A stretch of 33,567 nucleotides of DNA. It comes from Verrucomicrobiales bacterium. Lineage in GTDB: Bacteria; Verrucomicrobiota; Verrucomicrobiia; Verrucomicrobiales; V1-33. Numbering within the stretch: position 1 is the first letter of the stretch; each line of letters opens with the position of its first letter. Position numbers and translations under genes: made by a program. The notes under the pieces were generated by a model. That model was not told the DNA's origin, did no database searches, and saw only the letters and a list, made by a program, of their open reading frames with translations. Below are positions 4,171 through 23,718 of the stretch, piece after piece. The stretch spans positions 1 through 33,567 of the forward strand of contig JAQGPD010000285.1 of the NCBI GenBank assembly GCA_028293305.1, written 5' to 3'.

Positions 4171-4226
4171 TTCTATTTTCTATTTTCTAATTTCTAATTT
4201 CGAAATTTTCAAATTTTCCATTTCCC
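4171..4226. repeat. AT-rich periodic tract (TATTTTC/TAATTTC/AAATTTTC units, 7-8-bp period, ~7 units)
   Basis: Read directly: ttctattttctattttctaatttctaatttcgaaattttcaaattttccatttcc, between the yicC stop (4231) and the gmk start (4058). Confidence 0.8.
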
Positions 4227-4230
4227 CCGC

Positions 4231-8093: not shown

Positions 8094-8145
8094 TTGGCAG
8101 GAAATCCGCGCGTAGTCATCCCTGCCGACCGCCTCCCGAGCATCC

Positions 8146-8985
8146 ATGAAACGCCGCCGCCTCCTGCTTCCGCTCCTGCTCCTCGCCATCGGCATGGCCT
8201 CCGCCCAACGCTGGGGCCGGCGCGGGGAGATCGGCGACGCGCGCACCGCCCGCGAAGTCCCCTCCGGAAGCACCGGGACGCCCGTCTGGGAATATCCGGA
8301 AGCTTTTAAAACGGACGTCTTCACCTTCACCCGGATCCGTTATGAACGCGGCGGCTGGGGTCGCGGCGGAGGCTGGTCCACGGACCTTCCCGACAGTGAT
8401 CTGAACCTGTCCTGGCGGCTCCAGCAGATGACCAGCATGAAGGTGGATCCGGATGCCCGCATCATCCGGCCCACCGATCCCGAATTGATGGACTATCCAT
8501 TTGTCTATATAGCGGAACCCGGGGCGCTGTCCTTCTCGGAGGAGGAGGTTCTGGCCATGCGGAAGTATTTGGAAAACGGCGGATTTTTGCTTCTCGACGA
8601 TTTCTGGGGCGAGGAGGAATGGGAAAACTGCGAAGCCGTCATCAAGCAGGTCCTGCCTGAAAAAACCTTCGCCGAAATTCCCCTGACACATCCCATTTAC
8701 CGCAGCGTCTTCACCATCAAGGAGAAAGCCCAGGTGCCGAATATCGATCTCGGCGCCGCCAGCGAATATGGCGGCCGCACTGCGGAGCGCGAGGATGCCG
8801 GGGAGGTCCATCACCGCGGCATTTTTGATGACAAGGGCCGCCCCATGGTCATTGCCCTGCATAACACCGACAACGGTGACGGTTGGGAACGTGAAGGGGA
8901 GAGCGCCTATTACTTTAAACAATTCTCCGAACGCACCGCCTATCCGCTAGCGATCAATATCATCTTTTACGTCATGACCCACTGA
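8146..8985 (+). CDS. Secreted DUF4159-like protein (amidotransferase-like fold)
   Basis: 279 aa. Signal peptide (LLLPLLLLAIGMASA). 'YPFVYIAEPGALSFSEEEVLAMRKYLENGGFLLLDDFWG' matches my recollection of the DUF4159 core. Its stop abuts the moxR start. The family assignment is from memory. Confidence 0.6.
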   Translation: MKRRRLLLPLLLLAIGMASAQRWGRRGEIGDARTAREVPSGSTGTPVWEYPEAFKTDVFTFTRIRYERGGWGRGGGWSTDLPDSDLNLSWRLQQMTSMKVDPDARIIRPTDPELMDYPFVYIAEPGALSFSEEEVLAMRKYLENGGFLLLDDFWGEEEWENCEAVIKQVLPEKTFAEIPLTHPIYRSVFTIKEKAQVPNIDLGAASEYGGRTAEREDAGEVHHRGIFDDKGRPMVIALHNTDNGDGWEREGESAYYFKQFSERTAYPLAINIIFYVMTH

Positions 8986-10002
8986 ATGAGCACCCATCCC
9001 CTATCACCCAGCCTGCCCTCGCCCGCGGAGTCCGACCACCAGCTCCTCGAGCGCCTCATGGCCGGCCGCGCCCGCATCAGTGAGGAACTTGGCAAAGCCA
9101 TCGTCGGACAGCACGCCGTGATCGAGCAGATCATGCTGGCGCTCCTGGCGGGCGGACATTGCCTCATCACCGGCGCGCCCGGGTTGGCGAAAACCCTGTT
9201 GGTGAAAAGCATCTCCCGCATTTTCGATCTCCACTTCCAACGCATCCAATTCACCCCCGACCTCATGCCGGCGGACATCACCGGCACGGAGATCCTTCAG
9301 GACTCCGGGCATGGCCGCAGCATGACCTTCGTTCCCGGCCCCATTTTTGCCAACATGGTCCTGGCGGATGAGATCAACCGCACCCCGCCGAAAACCCAGG
9401 CGGCCTTGCTGGAGGCCATGCAGGAACATCAGGTCACGGCCATGGGGGTGCGCCATCCGTTGGCGGAACCCTTCTTTGTCCTGGCCACCCAGAACCCTAT
9501 CGAAATGGAGGGGACCTATCCATTGCCGGAGGCGCAGTTGGACCGCTTCATGTTCAATGTCGTCATGGATTACCTGCCGGAAAATGAGGAGGTGGAAGTG
9601 GTTATGCGGACCACCGGCGGACGGCCGCTGAAAATAGAATCCCTCTTTTCCGGAGCGGACGTGCAGCGTTTCCATCACCTCGTGCAGCAGGTTCCCGTCA
9701 CCACGGAACTGGTCACCCACGCCGTCCGCCTGGCCGCCGCCTCCAGACCGAACCAGCCCGGAACGCCCGGTTTCATCAATGACTGGGTCAGCTGGGGCGC
9801 CGGCACCCGTGCGGGACAATCCCTCATCCTGGGGGCCAAGGCCCGCGCGCTTTTCCATGGCCGCGTGCATGTCAAACTCGAGGACATCCAAGCTCTCGCC
9901 GCCCCTGTTCTCCGTCACCGTGTCCTGCTGAATTACCGCGCTGAAGCCGACGGCGTCAAAATTGATGATGTTATCACTAAGCTCATTGAACATGTGAAAT
10001 GA
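8986..10002 (+). CDS. moxR: MoxR-family AAA+ ATPase
   Basis: 338 aa. Walker A 'GAPGLAKT', Walker B 'VLADEINR', 'LEAMQE..VT', 'FFVLATQNPIEMEGTYPLPEAQLDRF'. This is a canonical MoxR/AAA_3 signature. Confidence 0.93.
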   Translation: MSTHPLSPSLPSPAESDHQLLERLMAGRARISEELGKAIVGQHAVIEQIMLALLAGGHCLITGAPGLAKTLLVKSISRIFDLHFQRIQFTPDLMPADITGTEILQDSGHGRSMTFVPGPIFANMVLADEINRTPPKTQAALLEAMQEHQVTAMGVRHPLAEPFFVLATQNPIEMEGTYPLPEAQLDRFMFNVVMDYLPENEEVEVVMRTTGGRPLKIESLFSGADVQRFHHLVQQVPVTTELVTHAVRLAAASRPNQPGTPGFINDWVSWGAGTRAGQSLILGAKARALFHGRVHVKLEDIQALAAPVLRHRVLLNYRAEADGVKIDDVITKLIEHVK

Positions 10003-10135
10003 AGAAAGGAGCACGGGCGTCCCGCCCGCGTGTTTCAAACTTCTGTCCCTTCCTCAATCTTTCCGACTCAAACAAAACCTTCCTTGAATCTGATCGAAAC
10101 ACACGGGCCAGAGGTCCGTGCTCCCTTCTTTTTTT
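10002..10135 (+). promoter_or_regulatory. Structured intra-operon spacer: imperfect 15-bp inverted repeat closed by a T-run (possible attenuator or processing site)
   Basis: AAGAAAGGAGCACGG (10002-10016) pairs with CCGTGCTCCCTTCTT (10116-10130), 14 of 15 bp. A run of T residues (10129-10135) follows, directly before ATG 10136. Inner hairpin GGGCG-tcc-CGCCC lies at about 10015-10027. Confidence 0.4.
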
Positions 10136-11086
10136 ATGCCGCCCATCCCACCCTCCGACAACGCCACGGCCCCGCCGCCGGCGTCCCGGATTGATACGGC
10201 TGCGCTGATGTCCATTCGCAGTCTGGAGCTGCGTGCCCGGGCGGTGGTGGAGGGTTACCGCGCCGGCCTGCACCGCAGTCCCTGGCATGGGTTTTCCGTC
10301 GAGTTTACCGAATACCGCCAATACACGCCGGGCGATGATCTCCGGCATTTGGACTGGCGCGTTTATGGCCGCAGCGACCGGTATTACATCCGGAAATTCG
10401 AGGACGAAACCAACCTCCGCTGTCATCTCATCGTGGACCAGAGCCACTCCATGGACTTTGGCACGGTGGGATGGACAAAGGCCGCCTATGCCGCCACGCT
10501 CGCCGCCACCCTGGCAAGATTTCTCCACCTCCAGGGCGATGCCGTGGGGCTGCTCAGTTTTGACGATCAGCTGCGCGACTATCTTCCCGCCCGTCAGCGC
10601 GTCGGCCACCTGCGGCAAATCATCATCGCCCTCGACAAGCCGCCCGGCGGCCGGTCCACCGACCTCATCAAACCCCTGCAGCGCACCGCCGAAATCATCC
10701 GCCGCCGTGCCTTGCTGGTGCTCGTTTCCGATTTTCTGACCCCATTGGACGAGTTGGAAAAAAACCTCATCAGCCTGACCGCGACCGGTCATGAAGCGGT
10801 GCTTTTCCAAGTCCTTGATCCCGCTGAAATTTCCTTCGGTTTTTCCAAAGCGTCCGTCTTCGAGGACGCGGAAACCGGGCGTGCCCTCTACATTGATCCG
10901 GCCGTGGCGAGGGAAGGCTATCTGCAAAAATTCCACGCGCACCAGGACGCCCTGGCCGTCATCTGCAACAAGCTGGGCGCCGCCTTCCATCCGGTGTCCA
11001 CCGAGCGGCCGCTGGAATTCGCCCTGACGGATTTTTTCCAGGACCGGCTGCGGCGCGGTCGTCTGGTTAGAAGGGGGGCGCGGTGA
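10136..11086 (+). CDS. DUF58 domain protein (VWA-like, MoxR partner)
   Basis: 'LELRARAVVEGYRAGLHRSPWHGFSVEFTEYRQYTPGDDLRHLDWR' is the hallmark DUF58 N-terminal motif. DxSxS 'DQSHS' at 10436-10450. The start is uncertain: GTG 10118 (inside the hairpin arm), ATG 10136 or ATG 10208. Confidence 0.85.
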   Translation: MPPIPPSDNATAPPPASRIDTAALMSIRSLELRARAVVEGYRAGLHRSPWHGFSVEFTEYRQYTPGDDLRHLDWRVYGRSDRYYIRKFEDETNLRCHLIVDQSHSMDFGTVGWTKAAYAATLAATLARFLHLQGDAVGLLSFDDQLRDYLPARQRVGHLRQIIIALDKPPGGRSTDLIKPLQRTAEIIRRRALLVLVSDFLTPLDELEKNLISLTATGHEAVLFQVLDPAEISFGFSKASVFEDAETGRALYIDPAVAREGYLQKFHAHQDALAVICNKLGAAFHPVSTERPLEFALTDFFQDRLRRGRLVRRGAR

Positions 11087-13218
11087 ACTTTCTGGCCCCC
11101 TTGTTTTTGCTGGGCGCCCTGGCCATCGCGGCACCGGTGATCTTTCATCTGATCCGCCGCACCACGCGGGAAAAAACCAGATTCAGCTCCCTGCTTTTTC
11201 TGAAGCCGGATCCCCCGCGGCCCTCCAGCCGGAGCCGGGTGGAAAATTGGTTATTGCTGCTGCTGCGGGCCGCCGCGCTCGCCTTGCTGGCTTTGGCTTT
11301 TGCCCGCCCGTTTTTTCCCGCCACCCTGCCGGTCGGCGCTGCCTCGGATACCCTTCGGCGCGTGGTGATATTGGTGGATTCCAGCGCCAGCATGCAGCGT
11401 CCGGGCCTAACGGAAGCTGCCCGCGCCAAGGCCGGCGAATGGCTCCGCAACGCGGCTCCGGGTGATCAGGTGGCAGTCTGGACATTTGATAGCGCGGTCC
11501 ACCCGCTCATGGATTTCGGCCAATGGACGGAACTGCCCGGCGGAGTCCGCGCGGAAACCGCCGCCGCCAGACTAGCCGATTCAGTGATCGCGGGTGGCGG
11601 CACCGGTCTTGCCAATGCCCTGACCACCGCCGCCGGTGTCCTGACGGAAATTCCGCCCGGCCGCGCCGCTGCCCCGGGCGGGGAAATCATCGTCATCAGC
11701 GATTTTCAGGAAGGCAGCCGGACCGAGGGTTTGCAGGGGTGGGAATGGCCGCGCGATGTCCGGGTGAAACTTGTTTCCCTAACGTCCGATCCCGTTGGCA
11801 ACGCGGGGCTGCAAATCGCGCCGGAATCCCTGATTTCCCCCGCCGTCGAAGGAAGCGGAAATGCCGTGCCTCCGCCCGCCCGGGTGCGCGTTTGGAATTC
11901 GCCGGACAGCCCGGTGCAGGATTTCCAGGTCGGCTGGGCCGCGCCGGGTGGGATTGATTTTGCCGGAAAATCCATGGACGTCACCGTGCCCGCCGGTCAG
12001 TCGCGGGTCGTGGAGTTGGCCTGGCCAAACGGCCCGGCCGCGGGTGGTGGCGCGATTTTGCTGAAAGGCGATGCCGCCGTTTTTGACAACCTGGTGACCG
12101 TGACCGCGCCGGTGGTGCAGGAGGTGGACGCCTGGTATTTCGGGGACGAGGCCCTGACGGATTCCCGGCGTCCGCTATATTTTCTGCAGCAGGCCCTGCC
12201 ACAAAGTCGTCGGCTGAAAGTCAATCTTCTGCCCGTGCCCCCGACCGCCGCCGTCCCGGTCCTGACACCTTCGCGGCCGGCCGTATTTTTTGTGACGGGC
12301 AATCCCCCGGCGCCTCAGGCGGAGTTTCTAAAATCGCAACTCGCGGCCGGGCGCAGTATTTTGTATTCGCTCACCACACCTGCGCCGGCGCCGGCTCTAG
12401 CCACTTTGTTGGGACGTGAAAAGGTGGACATAGGGGAAGTGAAGCCGGCCTCTTATGCCATGTTTTCGGATATCGATTTCCGCCATCCGCTCTTCGCACC
12501 GTTCGCGGATCCGCTCTACAGCGACTTCACCAAAATCCGCTTCTGGCGGTATTTCAAACTAACACCCGCCCTGCTGGATGGGGCGCGGACCGTCGCGAAA
12601 TTCGACTCCGGGGACCCCGCTGTGTTGGACATTCCCGTGGGGCCGGGGCGTGTCATGCTGTGGGCGGCGGGGTGGCAGCCGACGGATAGCCAACTGGCTT
12701 TGTCCTCCAAATTTGTGCTGCTGCTATCATCTTTCCTGGAATGGAGCGGCACCACCCTGACATCACCCTCGCAATTCCTCGCGGGCCGGCCTGTTCCCCT
12801 GGCCATGCCCGGACTGAATGCCAAAGCGGAGGTTAGGGTCACCGCTCCGGACGGCAGTGTCGGGGCGGTCAGCGGCACGCCTCCCCTTCTTCAGGCCACG
12901 CAGCGGACCGGATTGTATTCCTTCACGGACGGCAGCATCACGGGTTATTTTGCGGTGAATCCCGATCCGGCGGAATCCCGCACGCAGCCCATGGCCGCGG
13001 ATGAATTGGAACGGCTCGGGGTGCCGGTGTGGAGGGAAAAATCCTCCGCCGCGGATCGCGGAGACGGGGCGGGCGGTCTGGCGGGCGTGCAGACGGAAAG
13101 CCGGCAAAAACTTTGGCGATGGATCATCGTCGCGGCGCTCGCCGTATTGTTGATTGAAACCCTGCTTGCCGGTCTGAGCGCCCGGCGGGTGCCCACCCCG
13201 GGAGGAACTGTGTCATGA
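11083..13218 (+). CDS. BatA-type membrane protein (N-terminal double-TM 'aerotolerance' domain plus VWA domain, C-terminal TM)
   Basis: 711 aa. 'FLAPLFLLGALAIAAPVIFHLIRR' BatA_N-type start. MIDAS 'DSSAS' at 11377-11391. C-terminal TM 'WIIVAALAVLLIETLLAG'. GTG start overlaps the DUF58 stop (GTGA, 11083-11086). Confidence 0.8.
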   Translation: MNFLAPLFLLGALAIAAPVIFHLIRRTTREKTRFSSLLFLKPDPPRPSSRSRVENWLLLLLRAAALALLALAFARPFFPATLPVGAASDTLRRVVILVDSSASMQRPGLTEAARAKAGEWLRNAAPGDQVAVWTFDSAVHPLMDFGQWTELPGGVRAETAAARLADSVIAGGGTGLANALTTAAGVLTEIPPGRAAAPGGEIIVISDFQEGSRTEGLQGWEWPRDVRVKLVSLTSDPVGNAGLQIAPESLISPAVEGSGNAVPPPARVRVWNSPDSPVQDFQVGWAAPGGIDFAGKSMDVTVPAGQSRVVELAWPNGPAAGGGAILLKGDAAVFDNLVTVTAPVVQEVDAWYFGDEALTDSRRPLYFLQQALPQSRRLKVNLLPVPPTAAVPVLTPSRPAVFFVTGNPPAPQAEFLKSQLAAGRSILYSLTTPAPAPALATLLGREKVDIGEVKPASYAMFSDIDFRHPLFAPFADPLYSDFTKIRFWRYFKLTPALLDGARTVAKFDSGDPAVLDIPVGPGRVMLWAAGWQPTDSQLALSSKFVLLLSSFLEWSGTTLTSPSQFLAGRPVPLAMPGLNAKAEVRVTAPDGSVGAVSGTPPLLQATQRTGLYSFTDGSITGYFAVNPDPAESRTQPMAADELERLGVPVWREKSSAADRGDGAGGLAGVQTESRQKLWRWIIVAALAVLLIETLLAGLSARRVPTPGGTVS

Positions 13219-16200
13219 TCAATCCCTATCTAAAAGCCCGCCTTCTTCCCGTGTGGCAACGCCGCCGCCGTTGGCTGCTGTTTTCGCGTGCCGCGGGCTG
13301 GTTGGCGTTTTCCGCGCTGACAGGCGCGGCCATGAAGGAGTTTTCCGCCGATGGTTTGGCGGGCCGATCCCTGGGAATCTGGGCGGCGGGGACAGCTGCT
13401 GGACTGGTTATCGTGCTACTTCTGTGGCTTTTCCAAAAGCCGGACTATCAAAAAATCGCCCGGAGGATCGAGTCCCGGCATCCTGGTCTGGAGGGCCGGC
13501 TTTTGACTGCGGTGGAGATTTCCTCCGCGGAGGAACCGGCCTTCATTCAGGAGCGGTTATTGCAGCAAACCATCCAGCACGGCCTGGATCACGACTGGAA
13601 AAATCTTGTCAGGCCCCTGCCCATGGATGCCGTGCAGGCAGTCTCCGTTTTGGCGGCGGGCGCCTGCGTGGCCTTGTTTGTCCTGGCTCCGGACGCGCCT
13701 TCCGTCATGCCTTCCGCACCGGCGCCGGATGTTGTGTTGCTGCCGGATGGCATCGAAATTTTTCCTGGCGACACGGAAGTGGAAAAAGGCAGCGCCTTGC
13801 TCGTGACGGCGCGTTTCACGGAGGCGCTGCCCACCACGGTGGAACTGGTCACTGGCAACACGGCCGGGTCCGAGCAACGGAAATCACTGGTTAGGAATCT
13901 GAATGATCCCTTGTTCGGCGGTTCATTGCCGGAAGTTAAGGAGGACTTCAGATACCGCGTCGATTACGATGGAAAGCGCACCCGTGACTTCTCGGTGAAG
14001 GTTTTTGAATACCCGAAACTGGAGCGTTCCGACATCACTCTAACCTATCCTGCCTGGACCGGGCTTCCGGAAAAACGCACCGAGGACACCCGCCGCGCCA
14101 GTGCCGTCGAGGGCAGTCGGCTGAGGTTGGATCTGCAACTGAACAAGCCCGTGGCCGCCGCCGTGCTCCAGCCCCGCGACAAGTTCGCACCCGCCGTGCC
14201 TCTGACTGTGGAGGCAGGCAAAGCGGTGGCGGTCCTGACGGGTTTCACGCTGGTCTCCTCACAGGTTTACGAACTCATCCTGACCGATGAATCCAAGCGC
14301 ACGAATCAGTCCCCGGAAGTCTTCACGATCGATGTTGTGCCCAATCTTCCTTCCAAAATACAACTGGCCACGCCCCGCGGCGACCAACGCCCGTCCGCTT
14401 TGGAGGAGATGTTATTTTCCGGCACGGTGTCGGATGATTTCGGCGTGCTCGCCTGGGGCCTGTCCTTCACCAAGGGCGGCGGTGCGGAGGTCCTGTTGGA
14501 GTTGGGAAAAGCGGCTGCCGCCGGAGCTCCGGTCGCTTTCTCTCATTTGCTGAAGTTGGAGGAGGAGAAGGTCGAGCCGGATGATTTGTTGTCATGGTAT
14601 GCCTGGGCGGATGACATCGGGCCTGACGGAAAAACGCGGCGCACCCGGAGCGATTTGTTCTTTGGAGAAGTCCGTCCCTTCGAGGAGATTTTCCGTCAGG
14701 GCGAGGCGGCGTCCGGTGGTGAATCCCCGCCGCCCGGCGGCGCGGGTGCGGGAAGTCCCAGCACTAAATTGGCGGAGCTTCAGAAACAAATCATCAACGC
14801 CACCTGGACTCTGCAACGCACCATGGCCCCGCCCTCGGCCGATGTCGGAGTGGTCAGGGATTCCCAGAAGGACGCCTTGAACCAGGCGGTGGAAGCCTCG
14901 GCTGAAGGCGGCACCGACCCCCGGCTTTCCGCGGCATGGGAGGCCGCCAAAACCGCCATGACCACTGCGGTGGGAGAGCTGGAAAGCGTCGTAAAAAATT
15001 CCGCTCCGCTGACCGCCGCCTTGTCCGCCGAGCAGGCGGCCTATCAAGCCCTGCTGTCCCTCCGCGCCCGGGAGACCAGGATTTCCCGGAGCAAAAGCCC
15101 GCCCGGTGCCGGCAGCGCCGCCGAGCAGGCACGTCAGGAGGAACTGGAGCAGATGGAGCTGACCAAGGAGGAAAACCGCTATCAACTCGAGAGCGAGGCC
15201 AAGGCACCGCAGGAGGAGGCGCAGCGCGAGCAACGGCAAGTCCTCAGCCGCCTGCAGGAGTTGGCGCGGCGGCAGGAGGAGGTGAATGAAAAATTGAAGG
15301 AGCTGCAGACCGCTTTGCAGGCCGAAAACACGCCGGAAAAACAGGAGGATCTGCGACGCGAGTTGAAACGTCTGGAGGAGGAGCAACGGCAGATGCTGGC
15401 GGATGTGGATGAGTTGAATCAACGCATGGAAAAGCCGGAAAACCGCGAGGCCCTGGCGCAGGAAAAGAAGGCGCTGGAGGAGGCCCGGAAAAATGTGCAG
15501 GACTCCGCCAAAGCCGCCGCCGAAGGTCAGGTGGGTCAGGCATTGTCCGCGGGAACCCGCGCGCAACGACAGCTTCAGGACATGCGTGAGGAACTCCGGA
15601 AAAAAAGCAGCAGCGCTTTCAATCAGGAGCTCCGCGACCTCCGCTCGGAGGCCCGCGATGTGGCGCGCCGGCAGGAAAAAGTCACCGAACGCATCCAACA
15701 AATCGACCAGCCGAAACAACCCTCCCTCAGCACCGCGCCGGAGCTGGAGACCGCCCAAAAGGAGCTGGCCGATCAACAGGCGCGCACCAACAGCCTGACA
15801 AAGAAGGCGGCGGAGCTGTCCGAGTCCGCGGAGGCTTCGGAGCCTTTGGTTTCGCGCTCGCTTTATGACACCATGCGGAAGTTTTCGCAGGAGGACACGG
15901 CAGGCGTGAAGGAAACCCAGCAAAAGTTGTTGGCGGAGGGGCGCATGACCCGCCAGTTGATGGATGAGCTGAGCGAGTTGCAGCAGCGCAAGGAGGGAGC
16001 GAAAACGCTGGAAATGACCTCCGGATTGTTGGAACAGGATTTGTTGGAGGAAGCCAAATCGGGAGGAAAATCCGCGGCGTCCGGATTGGACGATCTCAAG
16101 TCAGGCATCGAACGCGCCGCGGAAAAAGTGTTGGGCGACGACACCGAAGCCATCAAACGCGCGGACCGGGAACTGGAGCAACTGACCCGCGAACTTGAAA

Positions 16201-17288
16201 AAGAAATCGCCCAGGCCGGAGGCGCTCAAGGGGATCCGTCATTGGATCCTACGCGCAAGAGCCCCGGTGAATCCGCGTCGGACGAAACCACTGAAAATGA
16301 AAGCGGACGCGCGACCGGGACGGAGGAATCGAACAGCAAGCGCGGCGCCGGCACGCCATCGGATGACGCAGAAGCCAAGGACGGAGCGGCGTCGGGTCCG
16401 GAAAAATCCGGCGTTCCGGGCGAGGAGAAAATGCCTGCCGACGCGGCTGACAAGGGGCAGGCTGAAACCTCCCGCGAAGGCCAGGAACCCGTCGAAGCGA
16501 AAGGTCCGGGAGAAGGTGATGATTCGGCCAAATCCAAGGAGCAAGGCGAAGGTGACGCAAAGGGCGAAGGAAAAGGGCAGGGGCCGGAGGCTGGCAACGG
16601 TCAGGAAAAAGGCCAAGGCGAAGGCGAAGGCAAAGGAGAAGGCGAAGCCCAGGCTCCAAGTGAAGGTCAGGGCGACGGAAAAGGTGAGGGCCAAGGACAA
16701 GGGCAAGGGCAAGGGCAAGGACAGGGCCAAGGAAAAGGTGAGGGCCAGGAAAAAGGTGAGGGTGAGGGACAAGGACGGGGTGGCCAAGGAAAAGGCGGGT
16801 CTCCGGATGGCGAGCCGCAGGATTCCGACGCCGATGGTCAACAACCCGGAAAAGGTCAGGGAGGCGGCGAAGGTGGCGGAAGTGGTGGTGATAACAACTC
16901 CCGTGGATCGTCCGGCAGCCGCATGGCGGGCGGGCGTGGCGGCTCCTCCGCGCCTATGACCGGCGATGGTTATGCGCCCTGGTCGGACCGCCTGCGGGAG
17001 GTGGAGGAGATCGTGGATTTTCCGGATTTGAGGGACAGCATCGCCACCGCGCGCGAGCGGGCGCGGCAGATGCGGGTGGAGGTGAAGCGTGATTTGAAAA
17101 AACCGGACTGGGCGGTGGTTCGGGCGGAGGTGATGACGCCGCTGGTGGAAGTCCGGCAGCGGTTGAAGGAGGAATTGGCCCGGCGGAACTCCAAGGAATC
17201 CCTGGTGCCGATCGACCGGGATCCCGTGCCGGGACGTTATACGGAGTCGGTGCGCCGCTATTATGAGCAACTGGGGAAGGAGCCCTAA
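13215..17288 (+). CDS. Giant (1357 aa) membrane-anchored coiled-coil/low-complexity protein (DUF4175-like?)
   Basis: ATGA overlap with the upstream gene. Two or three N-terminal TM helices. A ~400-aa E/Q/K/R-rich heptad-like region. A G/E/Q/K low-complexity block. Conserved-looking C-terminus '...PVPGRYTESVRRYYEQLG'. Coding-like GC3 throughout. The family name is a recollection only. Confidence 0.8.
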   Translation: MINPYLKARLLPVWQRRRRWLLFSRAAGWLAFSALTGAAMKEFSADGLAGRSLGIWAAGTAAGLVIVLLLWLFQKPDYQKIARRIESRHPGLEGRLLTAVEISSAEEPAFIQERLLQQTIQHGLDHDWKNLVRPLPMDAVQAVSVLAAGACVALFVLAPDAPSVMPSAPAPDVVLLPDGIEIFPGDTEVEKGSALLVTARFTEALPTTVELVTGNTAGSEQRKSLVRNLNDPLFGGSLPEVKEDFRYRVDYDGKRTRDFSVKVFEYPKLERSDITLTYPAWTGLPEKRTEDTRRASAVEGSRLRLDLQLNKPVAAAVLQPRDKFAPAVPLTVEAGKAVAVLTGFTLVSSQVYELILTDESKRTNQSPEVFTIDVVPNLPSKIQLATPRGDQRPSALEEMLFSGTVSDDFGVLAWGLSFTKGGGAEVLLELGKAAAAGAPVAFSHLLKLEEEKVEPDDLLSWYAWADDIGPDGKTRRTRSDLFFGEVRPFEEIFRQGEAASGGESPPPGGAGAGSPSTKLAELQKQIINATWTLQRTMAPPSADVGVVRDSQKDALNQAVEASAEGGTDPRLSAAWEAAKTAMTTAVGELESVVKNSAPLTAALSAEQAAYQALLSLRARETRISRSKSPPGAGSAAEQARQEELEQMELTKEENRYQLESEAKAPQEEAQREQRQVLSRLQELARRQEEVNEKLKELQTALQAENTPEKQEDLRRELKRLEEEQRQMLADVDELNQRMEKPENREALAQEKKALEEARKNVQDSAKAAAEGQVGQALSAGTRAQRQLQDMREELRKKSSSAFNQELRDLRSEARDVARRQEKVTERIQQIDQPKQPSLSTAPELETAQKELADQQARTNSLTKKAAELSESAEASEPLVSRSLYDTMRKFSQEDTAGVKETQQKLLAEGRMTRQLMDELSELQQRKEGAKTLEMTSGLLEQDLLEEAKSGGKSAASGLDDLKSGIERAAEKVLGDDTEAIKRADRELEQLTRELEKEIAQAGGAQGDPSLDPTRKSPGESASDETTENESGRATGTEESNSKRGAGTPSDDAEAKDGAASGPEKSGVPGEEKMPADAADKGQAETSREGQEPVEAKGPGEGDDSAKSKEQGEGDAKGEGKGQGPEAGNGQEKGQGEGEGKGEGEAQAPSEGQGDGKGEGQGQGQGQGQGQGQGKGEGQEKGEGEGQGRGGQGKGGSPDGEPQDSDADGQQPGKGQGGGEGGGSGGDNNSRGSSGSRMAGGRGGSSAPMTGDGYAPWSDRLREVEEIVDFPDLRDSIATARERARQMRVEVKRDLKKPDWAVVRAEVMTPLVEVRQRLKEELARRNSKESLVPIDRDPVPGRYTESVRRYYEQLGKEP
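16545..16800 (+). repeat. In-frame Gly/Glu/Gln/Lys low-complexity block including a (GGN-CAR)7 = (GQ)7 microsatellite at 16689-16730
   Basis: Read directly: GEGDAKGEGKGQG...GEGQGQGQGQGQGQGKGEGQEKGEGEGQGRGGQGKGG; ggccaaggacaagggcaagggcaagggcaaggacagggccaa. Confidence 0.85.
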
Positions 17289-17291
17289 CTG

Positions 17292-19766
17292 ATGAATCTG
17301 ACATCCGATATTGTATTTTCAGGCGCGTCCTGGCGCGGGCCGGCGGCCGCTTTTTTCCTGGCAGGGTGTGTGTTGGTGTGGTGGAGTTACCGCAGCGCGC
17401 CGGTCGGACGGCGGGGTCTTTGCGCGGCTTTGAAACTCGCGGGTCTCGGGCTCCTGATCCTGTGCGTGCTGGAGCCGCAATGGTCGCAGCCGAAGGCCCG
17501 GCCGGGATCGAATGTCATGGTGGTCCTGGCGGACAACAGCAGCAGTTTGCTAGTCTCGGATGAAGGCGCATCCGTTCCCCGGTCGGTTGGATTGCGGACC
17601 CTGCTGGATCCTGCGTCCTCCGCGTGGCAGGGCGAATTGGAGAAGAATTTCGAGGTCCGGCGCTATCAATTCGACCGCGGTTTGCAGCCGGTCGAGGCCT
17701 TTGGCGCGCTCCGTTTTGAGGGTCGAGCCTCCGCGCTTGGCAGCGCATTGGACACCGTGGCCACGCGCTTCCGGGGACGTCCTTTGGCGGGGGTGGTGGT
17801 TCTGACGGATGGCATCGCCACCGACCTTGCGGCGCTTCCGGAGAACTTGTCAGGGTGGCCTCCGGTTTATCCCGTGGTCATTGGAAAAAAGGGTCCGGCG
17901 CGTGATTTGTCAGTGAGAAAAGTGTCGGTGACGCAGACCGCGTTCGAGGATGCGCCGGTGACGGTGGATGCCGAAGTGGGCGTCGCGGGCAGCACCGCGC
18001 GGAGTGTCGTGGCCCGGTTGACGGATGCGTCAGGAAAGCTGGAGGAGGAGCAGACCCTGGAGTCCGGCGCGGGGAATGGCGCGGTGTCCTTCCGTTTCCG
18101 GATCAGGAATGCGCCGCCGGGAATTTCCTTCCACCGGCTTTCCGTGAGGGAGGCCGGGGAATCCGGGCCGGAGACGGCGGAGGCCACCCTGGCCAACAAT
18201 ACCTGCGTGGTGGTGGTGGACCGGGCGCAGGGGCCCTATCGGTTATTGTATGTGGCGGGCCGGCCGAATTGGGAGTTCAAATTCCTCAACCGCGCCCTGG
18301 AAGCGGACGATCAGGTGCAGCTCGCGGCATTGGTCAGGGTGGCGCGGCGGGAGCCGAAGTTTTCTTTTCTGGGCCGCGCCGGGGAGACCAGCAATCCCTT
18401 GTTCCGCGGAACCGAGGACCAGGCGAAGGGGGAGGTGGCGGCCTATGATCAACCGGTTTTGGTCAGGCTGAACACACGGGATGAGGCGGAACTCCGGGCA
18501 GGATTTCCCACCACGGAGGAGGAGCTGTTTGGTTATCACGCCATCATTCTGGACGATGTCGAAAGCGCCTTTTTTACTCCCGCGCAGGCCGCCCTGATCC
18601 AGCGTTTTGTGTCTTCGCGCGGGGGTGGATTCCTGATGCTGGGCGGGATGGAGTCGTTCTCGGAGGGCGGTTATGCCAGGACTCCGGTGGGGGAGATGCT
18701 GCCGGTGACTTTGGATAGGACTCCCGCCGTCGGAGGACCGGTGGAACTTGGATTCAATCTTGACCGCGACGGCTGGCTGCAGCCGTGGGCGCGGCTGCGG
18801 GAGAATGAGGCGGATGAAAAATCGCGTTTGTCAGGAATGCCGGGACTGCGAGTGGTGAATCGCGTGCGGGGCGTGAAACCGGGCGCGGGTGTGATCGCGA
18901 CAGCTGACGATGCCACCGGTCAGCGGGTGCCGGCCCTGGTCGTGCAACGGTTTGGGCGCGGGCGGTCGGCGGCGCTGATGGTGGGGGATTTGTGGCGGTG
19001 GGGAATGAAGAGTCCGGAGGCGCGGGTGGATTTGGAGAAATCGTGGCGGCAACTGGTGCGATGGATGGTGGCGGACGTGCCGGGGCGTGTTTCTCTGGCG
19101 ACGGTGCCCAAGCCGGCGGACCCTGCTGGGGCCATGGAAATCCAAGTCAGGGTGGCGGACAGCGGCTATCTTCCGGTGGAGAATGCCACGGTCAGTCTGG
19201 AGGTCGAGCCGGTGCTCATGGACGCGCCCGCGGAGGCGCCCGCGGCCGACTTGTCAGGTAAAAATGTGTCTGGCGTGGTGGCGATTCCAGGTGCCGCAAC
19301 CAACAATGCCGGGGCTGCGGACAGTGGTGGCGGCGTTTCCGGCGGTGGAGCCAGGCCCGGCGTCCTAACTTTGCAAGCCGAGCCGTCCGCAACGGAGCCG
19401 GGCTTGTATGTGGCGTCCTATGTGCCGCGCGAAACGGGGGGTTATAAAGTCACCGCCAAGGCCGTCAACGCCGCCGGTGCCGAGCAGGGGCGGGCCACGG
19501 CGGGATGGGCCACGGATCTGGCCGCGCAGGAATTGCGGTCGCTCACCCCTGACCGCGCCTTGTTGGAGGAGCTGGCCCGGAAAACCGGAGGTGCGGTCGT
19601 GGAGCCGGATGGGTTGAGTGCCTTCGCGGCGCGGCTGCCCTCCTTGAAAGCGCCCGTTATGGAGCCGCATGAGGAGCCGCTCTGGCACACGCCATGGATT
19701 TTTCTAACAGCCGTTGCCTGTCTCGCCGGGGAGTGGGGACTGCGCCGAACCCAGGGTCTGCCATGA
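17292..19766 (+). CDS. Membrane protein with VWA-like (MIDAS) domain and class-I glutamine-amidotransferase-like domain
   Basis: 824 aa. N-terminal TMs. MIDAS 'DNSSS' at 17532-17546 and 'VVVLTDGIATD'. 'HAIILDDVESAFFTPAQAALIQRFVSSRGGGFLMLGG' is GATase1/ThuA-like. C-terminal TM 'WIFLTAVACLAGEW'. AAGGAG Shine-Dalgarno about 13 nt upstream of the start. Confidence 0.8.
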   Translation: MNLTSDIVFSGASWRGPAAAFFLAGCVLVWWSYRSAPVGRRGLCAALKLAGLGLLILCVLEPQWSQPKARPGSNVMVVLADNSSSLLVSDEGASVPRSVGLRTLLDPASSAWQGELEKNFEVRRYQFDRGLQPVEAFGALRFEGRASALGSALDTVATRFRGRPLAGVVVLTDGIATDLAALPENLSGWPPVYPVVIGKKGPARDLSVRKVSVTQTAFEDAPVTVDAEVGVAGSTARSVVARLTDASGKLEEEQTLESGAGNGAVSFRFRIRNAPPGISFHRLSVREAGESGPETAEATLANNTCVVVVDRAQGPYRLLYVAGRPNWEFKFLNRALEADDQVQLAALVRVARREPKFSFLGRAGETSNPLFRGTEDQAKGEVAAYDQPVLVRLNTRDEAELRAGFPTTEEELFGYHAIILDDVESAFFTPAQAALIQRFVSSRGGGFLMLGGMESFSEGGYARTPVGEMLPVTLDRTPAVGGPVELGFNLDRDGWLQPWARLRENEADEKSRLSGMPGLRVVNRVRGVKPGAGVIATADDATGQRVPALVVQRFGRGRSAALMVGDLWRWGMKSPEARVDLEKSWRQLVRWMVADVPGRVSLATVPKPADPAGAMEIQVRVADSGYLPVENATVSLEVEPVLMDAPAEAPAADLSGKNVSGVVAIPGAATNNAGAADSGGGVSGGGARPGVLTLQAEPSATEPGLYVASYVPRETGGYKVTAKAVNAAGAEQGRATAGWATDLAAQELRSLTPDRALLEELARKTGGAVVEPDGLSAFAARLPSLKAPVMEPHEEPLWHTPWIFLTAVACLAGEWGLRRTQGLP

Positions 19767-21091
19767 AATTGTTATCTGTTCCAATTATTCCTTTTTTTCC
19801 GCTGATTTTCGCCGCGCTGCATTGCGCATGCCCAGCTGCCTTCGCGCAGCAGGACCCACCTGCCGCACCCGCCGCACCTGCCGCACCTGCCGCACCTGCC
19901 GCACCTGCAGTTCCGGCAGTTCCCTCGGCGGTCCCGGTTGTGGTGGAATCCGTGTCCGATGCCCGGCCTGTGGTGATTTTTGTGAGGGGCGCGGCGGGCA
20001 GTGCGGAATACGCCCCGCGTTTCGCGGCGCAGGAATTGGCTTGGAAAAAGGCTGCCGGGCGCGCCGGGGCGGAGTGGAGGACGGTGCCGGGCGGAGAAAT
20101 CCAAAACGCCGATAACAATCTCCAACCTGCCGCGGCGACGGTGGTTCCTGACGCATCCGCGGCTGCCGCGCCGGCTGTGGTGGCGAATGGAAACGGAGCT
20201 GCACCCGGAGCTGGAACCGGAGCCGGAGCCGGAGCTGCACCCGCACCCGGAGCCGCACCGGGAGCTGGAGCTGGAGTGGACGGCGTGAAGCAGGGCGGAA
20301 GTGATCATGCGCTTTTGGAAAAAATCCTGACAGAAATCGGGAAATCCGGCCCTGCGGCGGTTTGGATTGTTTTGGTGGGACACGGCACCTGGGATGGCAG
20401 GGAGGCCCGGTTCAATCTGGAGGGGCCGGACCTTTCCGCCGGGGAGTTGGCGGGCTGGCTGAAGCCTTTGACCCGGCCGGTGGTGGTGGTGAACACCTCG
20501 GCTTCCAGTTCGCCTTTTGTGAATATTTTGTCAGGACCGGGACGCATCGTCATCAGCGCCACCCGCAGCGGAAACGAAAGAAACTACGCCCGGTTCGGCG
20601 AGGAAATGGCGGCCAGCCTGGAGGATCCGGCGGCGGATTATGATGAGGATGGGCAGGTCACTTTGTTGGAGTTGTTTTTGCGCGCCTCCAGCCGCACCGC
20701 CGAATTTTATTTGGCCGAAGGCCGCCTCCTGACCGAGCATGCGCTGATGGATGACAACGGCGACGGCAAGGGCACGCCGGCCACTTTTTTCCGTGGTCTG
20801 CGGGCCAATGTCACTGCCAAGGACAAGGCCGTGCCGGATGGCGCGCGGTCCCGCCTGACGGCTTTGATCCCGGATGCCGCTGCCAGGAAAATGTCCCCCG
20901 CACAACTCAGCCAACGGGATTTGTTGGAGGGCGAAATCGATACGCTCCGCGCGGCCAAAGCCACCATGGCGGAGGACAATTACTATCTGAAATTGGAAGG
21001 CATCCTGCGGCGCCTGGCCGCGTTGGAACTGGAGCCGGAGCCGGTCCCGGAGCGGGCCCCCGAGCCGGTGCCGGAAAACTCTCCGCGTTGA
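19763..21091 (+). CDS. Secreted protein with Pro/Ala and Gly/Ala linkers and a clan-CD-peptidase-like (legumain/caspase-fold-like) core lacking the Cys
   Basis: ORF 19694..21091 trimmed to ATG 19763 (MKLLSVPIIPFFPLIFAALHCACPAAFA signal peptide; ATGA overlap with the upstream stop). 'WIVLVGHGTWDG' (His codon 20381-20383) is followed about 40 residues later by 'VVVVNTSASSSPF' (20492-20512). Confidence 0.7.
   Translation: MKLLSVPIIPFFPLIFAALHCACPAAFAQQDPPAAPAAPAAPAAPAAPAVPAVPSAVPVVVESVSDARPVVIFVRGAAGSAEYAPRFAAQELAWKKAAGRAGAEWRTVPGGEIQNADNNLQPAAATVVPDASAAAAPAVVANGNGAAPGAGTGAGAGAAPAPGAAPGAGAGVDGVKQGGSDHALLEKILTEIGKSGPAAVWIVLVGHGTWDGREARFNLEGPDLSAGELAGWLKPLTRPVVVVNTSASSSPFVNILSGPGRIVISATRSGNERNYARFGEEMAASLEDPAADYDEDGQVTLLELFLRASSRTAEFYLAEGRLLTEHALMDDNGDGKGTPATFFRGLRANVTAKDKAVPDGARSRLTALIPDAAARKMSPAQLSQRDLLEGEIDTLRAAKATMAEDNYYLKLEGILRRLAALELEPEPVPERAPEPVPENSPR
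19857..19909 (+). repeat. In-frame 9-bp microsatellite (CACCTGCCG-like x ~5.5) encoding (PAA)n
   Basis: Read directly: cacctgccgcacccgccgcacctgccgcacctgccgcacctgccgcacctgcag. Confidence 0.85.
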
Positions 21092-21125: not shown

Positions 21126-21563
21126 CTAACGATGATAGGGTTCGCCCTTTTTGATGGTGTGAACGCGGTAGATTTGTTCCAGCAGGACCACCAGCGCCAG
21201 CTCGTGCTGAAGTGTCAGGGCGCTGAGGCTCCAGACCTCGTCCGCAGCATCGCGCAGTTCCTGGCTGTGGCCGTCGGCGCCGCCGATGATCAGCGTCACG
21301 CGTTTGGTGCCCGCGAGTTCCCACCGGTCCACGGCGGCATGCCACTCGGATGTTGTTAGCCGCTTGCCGCGTTCATCCAGGACGATGCGGCGGCTGCCTT
21401 CGCTGTTTTTCAGAAAGCGCTCCTCCAGCTGCGGGCGCGGGCCATCGCGGAGGTATTCGATTTCCACCTTGGCGTAGCGGTTGGAGCGGCGCAGGTAATC
21501 TTCGATTCCATCCCTTGCCCAGGTCAGGGCGGGCTTGCCGACGGCGAGAATTTTCCAATTCAT
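21126..21563 (-). CDS. rlmH: 23S rRNA (pseudouridine1915-N3)-methyltransferase
   Basis: ORF 21126..21800 trimmed to ATG 21563 ('MNWKILAVGKP...'). The resulting 145-aa protein ends '...IGGADGHS..L...A....SLS.LTLQHELALVVLLEQIYR', typical of SPOUT RlmH. The upstream part of the ORF overlaps the tRNA genes. Confidence 0.88.
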   Translation of the reverse strand: MNWKILAVGKPALTWARDGIEDYLRRSNRYAKVEIEYLRDGPRPQLEERFLKNSEGSRRIVLDERGKRLTTSEWHAAVDRWELAGTKRVTLIIGGADGHSQELRDAADEVWSLSALTLQHELALVVLLEQIYRVHTIKKGEPYHR

Positions 21564-21633
21564 GGGGGTGTGGGAAATTTTTGACCCGCCCCTTGCATCC
21601 GGGCCGGTATGGTATATGAAATTCCTCCACTCC

Positions 21634-21707
21634 TGCCCCGTGGTGTAAAGGTAGCACAAGAGATTTTGATTCTCTTTGTCAAGGTTCGAATCCTTGCGGG
21701 GCATCCA
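21634..21707 (+). tRNA. tRNA-Gln (anticodon UUG), CCA encoded
   Basis: Manual cloverleaf. Acceptor TGCCCCG/CGGGGCA. D-arm GTGT-AAAGGTA-GCAC. Anticodon arm AGAGA-TT[TTG]AT-TCTCT. T-arm CAAGG-TTCGAAT-CCTTG. Discriminator T plus CCA. Confidence 0.9.
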
Positions 21708-21725
21708 ACAGGAGCAGGCCAGTAT

Positions 21726-21799
21726 TGCCCCGTGGTGTAACGGTAGCACAAGAGATTCTGATTCTCTTTGACAAGGTTCGAATCCTTGCGGGGTAACCA
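21726..21799 (+). tRNA. tRNA-Gln (anticodon CUG), CCA encoded
   Basis: Same fold as the upstream copy. Anticodon loop TT[CTG]AT. Acceptor TGCCCCG/CGGGGTA (one G-U pair). T-arm CAAGG-TTCGAAT-CCTTG. Discriminator A plus CCA. Confidence 0.9.
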
Positions 21800-21974
21800 C
21801 CCCCGGGTCCCCCTCGGGGATTCGGTCATTCCAGCCTCGTTTACGGGGAAAACCGGGCGCTTTTCCGCGCCGGGACGTCCCTTGCGTAGGTTCCCGCCGC
21901 CGGACGGATGGGAGACATTGACCGCTCCAGACCCCGGCATGTGCTGCCTCCGGAATGAAAAAATGGCCGGCATT

Positions 21975-22680: not shown

Positions 22681-23718
22681 TCACGGGGAAGCTTTCGCGG
22701 ATGCCGCGCCCTGGCCTGCTCCTGCCGGGACCACCTGTTCCGCTGTTAGCAAACCGTCCGCCGCCGCCGCCACTGTCTGCCAATCCAACTCCGAAATCGG
22801 CCGGCCGGTCCGTTTTGGAACCAGGGCGGAACCTGCCGGGATGCCCGCCTGCAACACCACCGCGCGGTCGTGGCGCGGGGCCCAGTGGAAAGGATTCGTG
22901 GGTCCGAACAAGGCGACCTGCGGAACGCGGAACGAGGCGGCGAGATGCATCGCCGCCGTGTCCACGGTCACTGCAAGCGCGGCTCCGGCGATGACCCTGG
23001 CAAGTCCGGGAAGTGTCAGGGTGCCGCGAAGATTCCGGACCGGCGCCTGGGTCAGACTTGAAATCCGGGCGATCTGTTCCTGCTCGAAACTCCAGTCGCC
23101 TCCTGTTAGGAGGATCGGCAGGCCGTGCGTGTCATGCAGATGATCCAGCAAGGCCGCCCAGTGGCCCGGCGGCCAGAATTTTTCCTCCCGTGCCGTGCCG
23201 GGGTGGATCGCAATATAGCGGGCGGGCAGCGGGAAAGTGTTGGCTTGGTGCGGGATTTTCAAATGCCCGGCATCGCCCACCGTCGGCAGAATCAATCCCG
23301 CCGCATGTGCCAGGGCGTGGTGGAAATCGATGGTGTGGTTTTCCCTGACAGAAGCGGAGCAGGTCACGGTGCAGGAAAATCGGCGCAGTCCCCTGAGGGT
23401 CGTTTTGGCGTAGCCGGCGCGCACCGGAGCGCCGGAGACCAGGCTGAGAAACGCCGACCGGTCCGTGCCGGTGTAGTCCAAAACCATGTCAGGACGCCAC
23501 TCGCGGAGTCGGTGCAGAAGGGCGGCATTCCAGCTTCCGGATTTCCATGTGAGGACCTCATCCGCCTCCGCGAAAAGCGGTGCCAGGGAACCTGCCGCGC
23601 CCGCCAGGACCAGCATGATTTCCGCCGAAGGATCCGCCGCACGCAAGGCCCCGAGGGCGGGCGCGGTGAGCACGGCATCGCCGATGCGTTTGAGTTGGAG
23701 CAGGAGAATGCGGGCCAC
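22681..23718 (-). CDS. Glycosyltransferase family 9 (LPS heptosyltransferase-like)
   Basis: 345 aa. GTG start. 'ARILLLQLKRIGDAVLTAPALGALR' is the typical GT9 N-terminus. 'IAIHPGTAREEKFWP..HW' and 'VTVDTAAMHLAA' motifs. Confidence 0.85.
   Translation of the reverse strand: MARILLLQLKRIGDAVLTAPALGALRAADPSAEIMLVLAGAAGSLAPLFAEADEVLTWKSGSWNAALLHRLREWRPDMVLDYTGTDRSAFLSLVSGAPVRAGYAKTTLRGLRRFSCTVTCSASVRENHTIDFHHALAHAAGLILPTVGDAGHLKIPHQANTFPLPARYIAIHPGTAREEKFWPPGHWAALLDHLHDTHGLPILLTGGDWSFEQEQIARISSLTQAPVRNLRGTLTLPGLARVIAGAALAVTVDTAAMHLAASFRVPQVALFGPTNPFHWAPRHDRAVVLQAGIPAGSALVPKRTGRPISELDWQTVAAAADGLLTAEQVVPAGAGQGAASAKASP

Follow-up and report, generated by a model that had tools for sequence, protein, structure and literature searches.

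Operons that join a MoxR-type AAA+ ATPase of the MRP type to a DUF58 protein and BatA-type von Willebrand factor A (VWA) partners are among the most widespread bacterial AAA+ systems, and we know of no client or mechanism for them. The BatI locus of Bacteroides fragilis, the bat genes of Leptospira and bb0170-bb0176 of Borrelia each combine an MRP-type MoxR, a DUF58 protein, a protein with a BatA_N double-transmembrane (TM) domain and a VWA domain bearing a metal ion-dependent adhesion site (MIDAS), and tetratricopeptide repeats (TPR) encoded in the cluster. The same parts occur in an eight-gene cluster of a Verrucomicrobiales bacterium (assembly GCA_028293305.1, contig JAQGPD010000285.1), within the stretch of 33,567 nucleotides analysed here, which we call the window. 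By its sequence this cluster belongs to the known class of MRP-type MoxR/Bat-like operons and, like the Bat loci, it has no known biochemical function. The eight genes are inherited as a set in Verrucomicrobiota, Gemmatimonadota and Acidobacteriota, three phyla at the least.

The cluster forms a co-directional block on the + strand (5463-21091). Since the neighbours on both sides lie on the opposite strand, a divergent yicC-like gene upstream (4231-5274, -) and a convergent gene for an rlmH-like SPOUT methyltransferase downstream (21126 to about 21560, -), the unit comprises eight genes and is a single operon of a MoxR ATPase with membrane and periplasmic partners. Pfam assigns a TPR and gluzincin protein (gene 1, 5463-8093, 876 aa), a secreted DUF4159 protein (gene 2, 8146-8985, 279 aa), the MoxR-type AAA+ ATPase (gene 3, 8986-10002, 338 aa) and a DUF58 VWA-like adaptor (gene 4, 10118-11086, 322 aa), the last two cytoplasmic. 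These are followed by a BatA_N-VWA membrane protein (gene 5, 11083-13218, 711 aa; Pfam and TIGR02226), a giant protein (gene 6, 13215-17288, 1357 aa; AlphaFold2 (AF2) model and Foldseek), a VWA-like/GATase1-like membrane protein (gene 7, 17292-19766, 824 aa; Pfam and PDB matches) and a secreted protein of predicted caspase/legumain fold (gene 8, 19763-21091, 442 aa; AF2 model and Foldseek).

The genes are closely packed. Gene 2 starts 52 nt after gene 1, its own TGA stop directly abuts the ATG of gene 3 (8985/8986), genes 4 and 5 overlap in a GTGA (11083-11086), genes 5/6 and 7/8 overlap in an ATGA (13215-13218 and 19763-19766), and genes 6 and 7 are separated by 3 nt (17289-17291). This packing is not due to chance, since the gene order repeats in 37 of 43 genomes and the 4-nt overlaps recur in the independent gene calls of relatives. 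An earlier note on this DNA had described a translationally coupled unit of seven genes that begins with the DUF4159 gene. Its seven reading frames and the junctions it listed are exact in the sequence, and the overlaps and abutments stand, but the operon has eight genes and, with a structured spacer of 115 nt between moxR and the DUF58 gene, not every junction is coupled. Pfam and NCBIfam agree with its calls of DUF4159, AAA_3 plus lid, DUF58, BatA_N plus VWA_2 and GATase1_like, and the three MIDAS-like motifs that it named (DQSHS, DSSAS and DNSSS) translate as claimed. It had also expected a signal peptide or TM anchor in nearly every product, and we found one in six of the eight. For gene 8, the start at 19763 is favoured over an upstream ATG at 19694, since homologues begin at the MK... 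of the signal peptide. Promoter and terminator scans of the window returned counts equal to the shuffled expectation and are therefore uninformative; a promoter-like site just 5' of gene 1 (5425-5453) carries no statistical weight.

We compared the eight window proteins by tblastn with Verrucomicrobiota loci, 43 of which, at species level, had enough flanking sequence. All eight genes lie on one strand in the window order in 37 of these loci (median span 15.6 kb), and the exceptions lack the upstream genes. Outside the phylum, Gemmatirosa kalamazoonensis (Gemmatimonadota) carries all eight on the + strand of a 1.1-Mb replicon in the order 7-8-1-2-3-4-5-6, a cyclic permutation of the window order. 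A metagenome contig of 663 kb (L087) holds seven of the eight genes in permuted order, while a Pyrinomonadaceae (Acidobacteriota) contig and two metagenome contigs hold permuted, partial clusters and end before the set is complete. The position of the DUF4159 gene varies among the permuted clusters outside Gemmatirosa, and in other phyla the permuted order puts gene 1 between gene 8 and moxR. The proposal of a conserved module around a single MoxR with DUF58 and VWA partners is thus upheld by gene order within and beyond Verrucomicrobiota. So is the suggestion that the upstream TPR/gluzincin gene belongs to it, this gene being adjacent in 37 of the 43 loci and also present in the permuted clusters. 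The genes that flank the cluster differ between genomes.

A scan for gene 6, with one genome per species, found a relative in at least 476 species-level genomes, the closest match being 68% identical, which makes the source of the window an uncultured member of the phylum. The best 80 genomes are nearly all labelled Verrucomicrobiota and span Opitutales, Verrucomicrobiales, Limisphaerales and Chthoniobacterales; three Bifidobacterium-type labels among them look like mislabels. The architecture had been called atypical at the outset. It is instead standard across Verrucomicrobiota, as the number of genomes with the giant protein indicates, and it is not confined to the Planctomycetes-Verrucomicrobia-Chlamydiae (PVC) phyla. 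A simpler core is annotated on a Planctomyces plasmid (DUF58, a BatA-domain protein and a VWA/GATase-like protein). A Rhizobium-type core on plasmids was considered and rejected, the alphaproteobacterial matches being stand-alone amidotransferases of no relevance here. The region between gene 1 and moxR is variable: some Opitutaceae have two tandem DUF4159 genes there (L001, 3994-5912), many other loci have a gap of about 1 kb, and the two closest relatives, L003 and L004, carry an unrelated SGNH/BNR gene in the gene 1 position, upstream of the DUF4159 gene, which in L003 (447-4313) is a fusion of SGNH-esterase, nucleoside-hydrolase and BNR domains.

Gene 3 matches AAA_3 (PF07726) across the full profile (E 2.9e-62) and AAA_lid_2 (PF17863, E 1.2e-15), and the match to bpMoxR is far weaker (E 1e-10). 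The Walker A (GAPGLAKT) and Walker B (LADEINR) motifs are 100% conserved in 60 orthologues. Gene 3 shares its operon with DUF58, BatA-VWA and TPR genes, a synteny kept across phyla. The AAA core with its lid, the Walker motifs and this pairing with DUF58, VWA and TPR genes are those of an MRP-type MoxR. Gene 4 matches DUF58 (E 8e-50) and VWA_2 in Pfam, and the D107, S109 and S111 of its MIDAS motif (DQSHS) are 100% conserved across 67 orthologues; the protein itself shows no hydrophobic segment.

The 115 nt between moxR and the DUF58 gene (10003-10117) contribute to a structured intercistronic element on the + strand (10008-10124, from RNA folding). Its 5' arm, GGAGCACGGGCGTCCCGCCCG, begins 6 nt past the moxR stop and its 3' arm pairs with it and overlaps the GTG (10118) at which the DUF58 gene is annotated to start. 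The result is a long-range stem of -47.8 kcal/mol (z = -6.15; none of 200 shuffles was as stable). The DUF58 gene has an in-frame ATG at 10136, which may be its true start. The 21-mer recurs in relative L004, where it forms a near-perfect inverted repeat within the orthologous spacer (6697-6810, z = -8.2), and it is single-copy in the window, which rules out a dispersed repeat of the repetitive extragenic palindromic (REP) kind. The length of the moxR-DUF58 junction varies among relatives, with a 4-nt overlap at one extreme and more than 500 nt at the other, and long GC-rich hairpins of unrelated sequence often fill it. This hot spot was seen in L012, L016, L019, L022, L035, L038, L060, L077 and L078, and in L035 the junction holds a perfect inverted repeat of 19 bp. 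The 5' arm would be melted by ribosomes that reach the moxR stop, so the hairpin could couple or throttle (attenuate) DUF58 translation; it may otherwise be an element of mRNA processing or stability.

The membrane partners begin with gene 5, which matches BatA (PF07584, E 2e-18), VWA_2 and TIGR02226 (E 2e-21) in Pfam and NCBIfam, with VWA matches in the PDB (E 3e-6). Its N-terminal double-TM domain is followed by a VWA domain with a MIDAS, as in BatA, and D99, S101 and S103 of the DSSAS motif are 97-100% conserved. TM segments lie at residues 8-24, 57-73 and 681-697, the first two forming the BatA_N hairpin, which encloses a strongly basic loop. The C-terminal half is conserved and ends in a TM helix. 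It gave weak DUF4350 matches in 5 of 14 orthologues, and an acidobacterial orthologue gave weak matches to DUF4350, GATase1_like and Glyco_hydro_42M, so this half of the protein is probably GATase1-like.

Gene 7 opens with a TM hairpin at the N-terminus, followed by a VWA-like region in which a TDG motif is invariant, a GATase1-like domain (PF07090, E 8e-9, residues 402-593; PDB matches 3soz, 2gk3 and 3rht), a beta-rich domain and a C-terminal TM anchor. Its layout can be compared with that of BatB, the second and small VWA membrane protein of Bat operons: gene 7 has a TM hairpin and a VWA-like region, in a protein of 824 aa to which a GATase1-like domain has been added. No Pfam VWA match was obtained for it. 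The earlier note had counted three MIDAS proteins. The motif is family-wide in the DUF58 and BatA-VWA proteins, but the DNSSS of gene 7 is lineage-specific: among 72 orthologues the position reads DNSxG in 50 and DNSxS in 20, three of these 20 being DNSSS, the window copy included. Residues 400-600 hold no Cys or His that is invariant or at least 90% conserved among 14 orthologues, which points to a non-catalytic GATase1-like domain in which amidotransferase chemistry would not be expected.

The GATase1-like fold is also found in the secreted gene 2 protein, which matches DUF4159 (E 1e-49, Pfam) and an uncharacterised structural-genomics entry in the PDB (4i66, E 9e-5), and has a signal peptide that ends ...ASA|Q. 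Pfam placed DUF4159 in the class-I amidotransferase clan on structural grounds (PMC4702930). Genes 2 and 7 should nonetheless not be filed as amidotransferases, because no triad is present. Two amidotransferase-like modules had been proposed for the operon; the GATase1_like domain of gene 7 is one, and the second, in the C-terminal half of gene 5, is plausible from its weak orthologue matches. A profile-profile comparison of genes 5 and 7 with hhalign gave a weak N-terminal match (31% probability) and no support for a shared GATase-like C-terminal half.

Gene 6 was modelled by AF2 over residues 1-1010 with 62 homologues (predicted local distance difference test score, pLDDT, 82). The model starts with two to three TM helices around a small helical loop domain (residues 78-131), followed by three tandem beta-sandwich domains (174-485) that Foldseek matched to generic immunoglobulin (Ig), fibronectin type III (FN3) and macroglobulin arrays (E about 1e-7). 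The next part, 515-1001, comprises about 500 residues of long predicted helices, a better description than the coiled-coil giant first suggested. A low-complexity tract rich in G, Q, E and K (about 1000-1245) leads to a conserved C-terminal domain of about 110 residues. The protein is conserved along its whole length, strongly so in the C-terminal domain, and has hundreds of full-length homologues, all labelled hypothetical, the named ones from Verrucomicrobiota. The window protein has no Pfam match, DUF4175 (PF13779) included, and a sequence search against the PDB returned nothing significant. Sub-threshold matches to DUF4175 over the beta-sandwich region were obtained for 8 of 21 orthologues (best E 1.4e-5); the three that were read scored 14.6 to 15.8 bits over profile positions 184-327, against a Pfam gathering threshold of 27.3. 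Gene 6 is therefore, at the level of its orthologues, weakly DUF4175-like.

The operon begins and ends with peptidase-like proteins. Gene 1 matches TPR_14/16/19 and Peptidase_MA_2 (PF13485, E 6e-14), with TPR repeats flanking the gluzincin domain on both sides. Its putative zinc site has the HExxH motif and downstream Glu ligand of gluzincins (HEFCH at residues 498-502, third ligand E519), and H498, E499, H502 and E519 are 100% conserved in 47 orthologues. A hydrophobic segment near the N-terminus (residues 18-34) suggests that the protein is periplasmic or anchored.

For gene 8, a sequence search against the PDB returned nothing significant and the window protein has no Pfam match; the fold search alone was informative. 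The AF2 model, built with 31 homologues (pLDDT 78, predicted template modelling score 0.72), has a caspase/hemoglobinase (clan CD) fold, with Foldseek matches to GPI8/PIGK as the best and to metacaspase-9, caspases and legumain (E 1e-4 to 1e-2, probability about 1.0). G206-H207-G208 and S249 are invariant in 37 members from three phyla, and the GHGT sequence aligns with the catalytic His motif of metacaspase-9 on the equivalent strand. Two acidic loops of the DxDxDG type are also invariant in these members. No Cys is conserved among them, and the region where the catalytic Cys is expected holds a Ser-rich loop (TSASSS, 245-250) in which S249 is invariant and S247 at least 90% conserved. Because of the missing Cys, filing gene 8 under the C13 peptidases is not warranted; a few orthologues gave weak Peptidase_C13 matches. 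The protein also has a C-terminal helical extension and an insert rich in A, G and P (about residues 110-180, window 20090-20300; pLDDT below 50), which is absent or much shorter in most of 30 aligned homologues, mostly of about 320 aa. Clustered at 50% identity, the family yields about 4,660 representatives, of which 1,264 match at E <= 1e-30; at 90% identity, the scored candidates form 2,839 clusters. No Pfam domain is on record for any member and no Pfam model exists for the family. Its long members were also searched for Rosetta-stone fusions, and no informative fusion was found.

Two further observations concern gene 8 and its surroundings. A conserved D-N-G-D-G loop is common to the secreted proteins of gene 2 (HNTDNGDGWE, residues 242-246, window 8869-8883) and gene 8 (DDNGDGKG, residues 331-335, window 20753-20767); these loops may bind Ca2+ or offer acidic ligands to a periplasmic MIDAS site. 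On the contig L087, two genes for WD40 beta-propellers (3414-7010) precede the permuted cluster, and one of them is fused to a Peptidase_C14 (caspase) domain, a second caspase-type gene beside the module.

We propose, with a probability of about one half, that a MoxR-DUF58 motor remodels an inner-membrane-anchored periplasmic scaffold with two peptidase-like subunits and so serves envelope maintenance. The positive-inside basic loops, together with the topology of the BatA-type protein BB0173, whose periplasmic VWA domain was determined experimentally (PMC5700661), would place MoxR and DUF58 in the cytoplasm and the bulk of genes 5-7, with genes 1, 2 and 8, in the periplasm. By analogy with NorQ/NorD, RavA/ViaA and CbbQ/CbbO, the MoxR hexamer would take DUF58 as its adaptor; two papers present MoxR-VWA cooperation as a general principle (PMC9976466, PMC13036017). 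The DUF58 MIDAS would then grip acidic residues in conserved cytoplasmic loops of the gene 5-7 proteins, candidates being the BatA_N loop of gene 5 and the gene 6 loop with an invariant E86, and ATP-driven pulling on these loops would assemble or switch the periplasmic assembly. Within that assembly, oligomerisation would fall to the non-catalytic GATase1-like modules, present in genes 2 and 7 and probably also in gene 5 (C-terminal half), much as this fold forms the trimerisation domain in GH42 enzymes. Ligands would be bound by the periplasmic VWA domain with its MIDAS and by the array of beta-sandwiches, the long helical stalk of gene 6 would project the complex off the inner membrane, and the peptidase-like subunits of genes 1 and 8 would hold an envelope substrate or process it. 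Overall, the complex would maintain or remodel the cell envelope and would not serve metabolism or defence. The phenotype of RL3499 points this way by analogy: this MRP-subfamily MoxR is reportedly important for membrane integrity and cell morphology in Rhizobium leguminosarum (PMC3893208).

Several points weigh against this proposal. Formation of a complex is suggested by synteny alone. MoxR and DUF58 are cytoplasmic and almost all of the conserved mass is periplasmic, so coupling must cross the membrane via short loops. No outer-membrane or peptidoglycan-binding domain was detected among the eight proteins. The complex had initially been pictured as envelope-spanning, which finds no support, as no outer-membrane component is encoded and the parts are cytoplasmic, inner-membrane-anchored or periplasmic. 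Gene 1 has no place beside the cluster in the two closest relatives, L003 and L004, so its adjacency is not obligatory. Finally, Leptospira biflexa showed no change in morphology or growth when its bat genes were deleted (PMC3557215), and envelope phenotypes are thus not universal for related operons.

The main rival, which we consider unlikely, is a machine for regulated proteolysis or processing in the periplasm. Genes 1 and 8 would be its effectors, gated from the cytoplasm by MoxR-DUF58, and the VWA, beta-sandwich and GATase1-like proteins would form a platform for substrate capture; the output would be cleavage or transpeptidation of specific envelope proteins, as carried out by C13 enzymes such as legumain and GPI8. 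The complete conservation of the HExxH and Glu ligands in gene 1 speaks for it, as does the invariance of H207 and S249 in gene 8 across three phyla; the best fold match of gene 8 is a subunit of the glycosylphosphatidylinositol (GPI) transamidase, and genes 8 and 1 directly adjoin in the permuted clusters. However, gene 8 lacks the catalytic Cys of clan CD, and a Cys-less caspase fold can be pure scaffold. Gene 1 is missing from the neighbourhood of the cluster in the two closest relatives, and no substrate is identifiable. A more specific version is less probable again: the eight proteins would be a cross-phylum envelope machine in which MoxR-DUF58 gates, from across the inner membrane, a periplasmic processing platform whose catalytic subunit is a Ser/His variant of clan CD, acting on envelope proteins together with the TPR-zinc peptidase. 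If this Ser/His caspase-fold platform were true, it would be the first defined client complex for an MRP-type MoxR and would bring a new nucleophile to the caspase fold.

A Bat-type operon for aerotolerance or oxidative stress, which supplies or protects periplasmic reducing power like BatI of B. fragilis, is doubtful. MoxR, DUF58, BatA_N-VWA and TPR components are held in common, stress phenotypes are on record for the Bat operons of Bacteroides, Riemerella and Francisella (summarised in PMC11834572), and oxygen regulates the bat-like Borrelia genes bb0170 to bb0176, bb0173 included. Against this, none of the eight proteins matches BatD (PF13584) or an SH3-type BatE at E <= 0.01 and none has a redox domain. 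Many carriers belong to aerobic lineages of soil and freshwater, and the Leptospira bat deletion had no oxidative-stress phenotype (PMC3557215).

It is even less probable that the operon encodes a maturation chaperone for an unlinked enzyme, with MoxR-DUF58 inserting a metal or cofactor or activating the enzyme, as NorQD, CoxD and CbbQO do, and the remaining proteins serving as membrane tethers. Among the biochemical activities of MoxR-VWA pairs this one is documented best (PMC9976466, PMC13036017, PMC3893208), but in the known systems the genes of the client enzyme adjoin, whereas this locus has no client and its flanking genes vary between genomes. Moreover, six co-inherited envelope proteins of about 4,500 aa in total far exceed a tether. 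Last among the four, and improbable, is an apparatus for surface adhesion or matrix binding, with external ligands bound by the VWA/MIDAS and Ig/FN3-like domains, a role proposed for BB0172 of Borrelia and the FN3 protein of the Bifidobacterium PFNA cluster. VWA and beta-sandwich arrays are classic adhesion modules, BB0172 binds integrin, and the PFNA cluster is described as putting MoxR and DUF58 together with an FN3 protein. Here, though, all large proteins are anchored in the inner membrane, with no signal for the outer membrane, secretion or sorting. Since the hosts are diderm, the domains would be periplasmic, and the cluster is kept in free-living bacteria of soil and water. An anti-phage or conflict system of the MoxR-vWA-beta-propeller type was rejected, with no PADLOC match and no propeller within the operon. 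Identity with the mucin-utilisation locus MUL1 of Akkermansia muciniphila (mul1A, a TPR protein) was considered and dropped, MUL1 being described as Sus-like and absent from aquatic Akkermansiaceae (PMC13174399).

The rest of the window adds some observations on the neighbourhood of the operon. Tandem tRNA-Gln genes lie downstream on the + strand (21634-21707, TTG; 21726-21799, CTG) and overlap the N-terminal 79 codons of the mechanically called open reading frame 21126-21800 (-); since the SPOUT domain begins at residue 80, the real rlmH-like gene must start further downstream. Genes for a GT9 heptosyltransferase-like protein (22681-23718, -) and a GT4 glycosyltransferase (23831-25075, -), about 1.6 to 4 kb downstream of the operon, look like envelope biosynthesis of the lipopolysaccharide-core type, and their linkage to the operon is not kept in the relatives examined. 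A DUF6600 protein of 857 aa (25327-27900, +) is the second large low-complexity protein in the window. Its C-terminal third consists of tandem repeats rich in Q, R, E and N (...AEAARREQARQQNEARQKQEEQQR...), which account for the extreme AT skew (0.74) at 27-28 kb.

Comparison of the operon with the Bat loci indicates how it departs from them. BatD and an SH3-type BatE are absent, and because of this it is not a classical Bat operon. Its TPR repeats are fused to a zinc peptidase, and its second VWA protein has 824 aa, a GATase1-like domain and a mostly degenerate MIDAS. The operon adds DUF4159, the DUF4175-like protein of 1357 aa and the caspase-fold protein, and moxR is its third gene and not its first. 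The RL3499-RL3502 operon of R. leguminosarum was reportedly described by Vanderlinde et al. in 2011 (J Bacteriol 193:2684). In papers that cite it, it appears as a conserved Bat-related region in which RL3499 is an MRP-subfamily MoxR. It comprises four locus tags, compared with eight genes in the window, and the number alone excludes that it holds the giant, caspase-fold, TPR-peptidase and DUF4159 proteins in addition to a MoxR core.

The pairs NorQ/NorD, RavA/ViaA, CbbQ/CbbO and CoxD/E, each a MoxR-class AAA+ hexamer with a VWA/MIDAS adaptor, provide a template for MoxR with DUF58. However, these pairs act on a defined, adjacent client enzyme in the cytoplasm or membrane, whereas no client enzyme is linked in the window and the partners are large membrane proteins that face the periplasm. 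Gene 8 has its predicted fold and its His-Gly motif in common with the clan CD families C13 (legumain, GPI8/PIGK), metacaspases and caspases, and differs from them in the Ser-rich loop without Cys, the two DxDxDG-type loops and the C-terminal helical extension. In gene 6, as in DUF4175 (PF13779) proteins, N-terminal TM helices precede a long extracytoplasmic region. AdvA of Acinetobacter baumannii is an essential cell-division protein that carries DUF4175 (PMC7481262); it is much smaller than gene 6 and is not reported with MoxR genes. As in the window, the PFNA cluster of Bifidobacterium (pkb2-fn3-aaa-atp-duf58-tgm) has MoxR and DUF58 beside an FN3 beta-sandwich and a transglutaminase-like membrane protein. 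It is found in another phylum with another type of envelope, encodes a Ser/Thr kinase as well and has no BatA/VWA, GATase1-like or caspase-fold genes.

Full-text literature searches returned no description of the eight-gene module, and no paper on the cluster was found, in agreement with the view that its function had not been described. A candidate parts list for a client complex follows from the five further envelope proteins, two of them peptidase-like and one a largely stalk-like protein of about 1,300 aa, that are inherited with the MoxR-DUF58-BatA core in at least three phyla. The operon also exposes a large family without a Pfam model, of predicted caspase fold, in which one His and one Ser are invariant and no Cys is conserved. 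Some carriers, Gemmatirosa kalamazoonensis for one, can be cultured, which allows experiments. Even if the proteins are just a structural periplasmic scaffold, annotation would benefit, because thousands of "hypothetical proteins" could then receive names as subunits of a single system. Compared with the described systems, this kind of system is not new; the eight-part list, the permutation of its order across phyla and the Cys-less caspase-fold family are testable additions to it.

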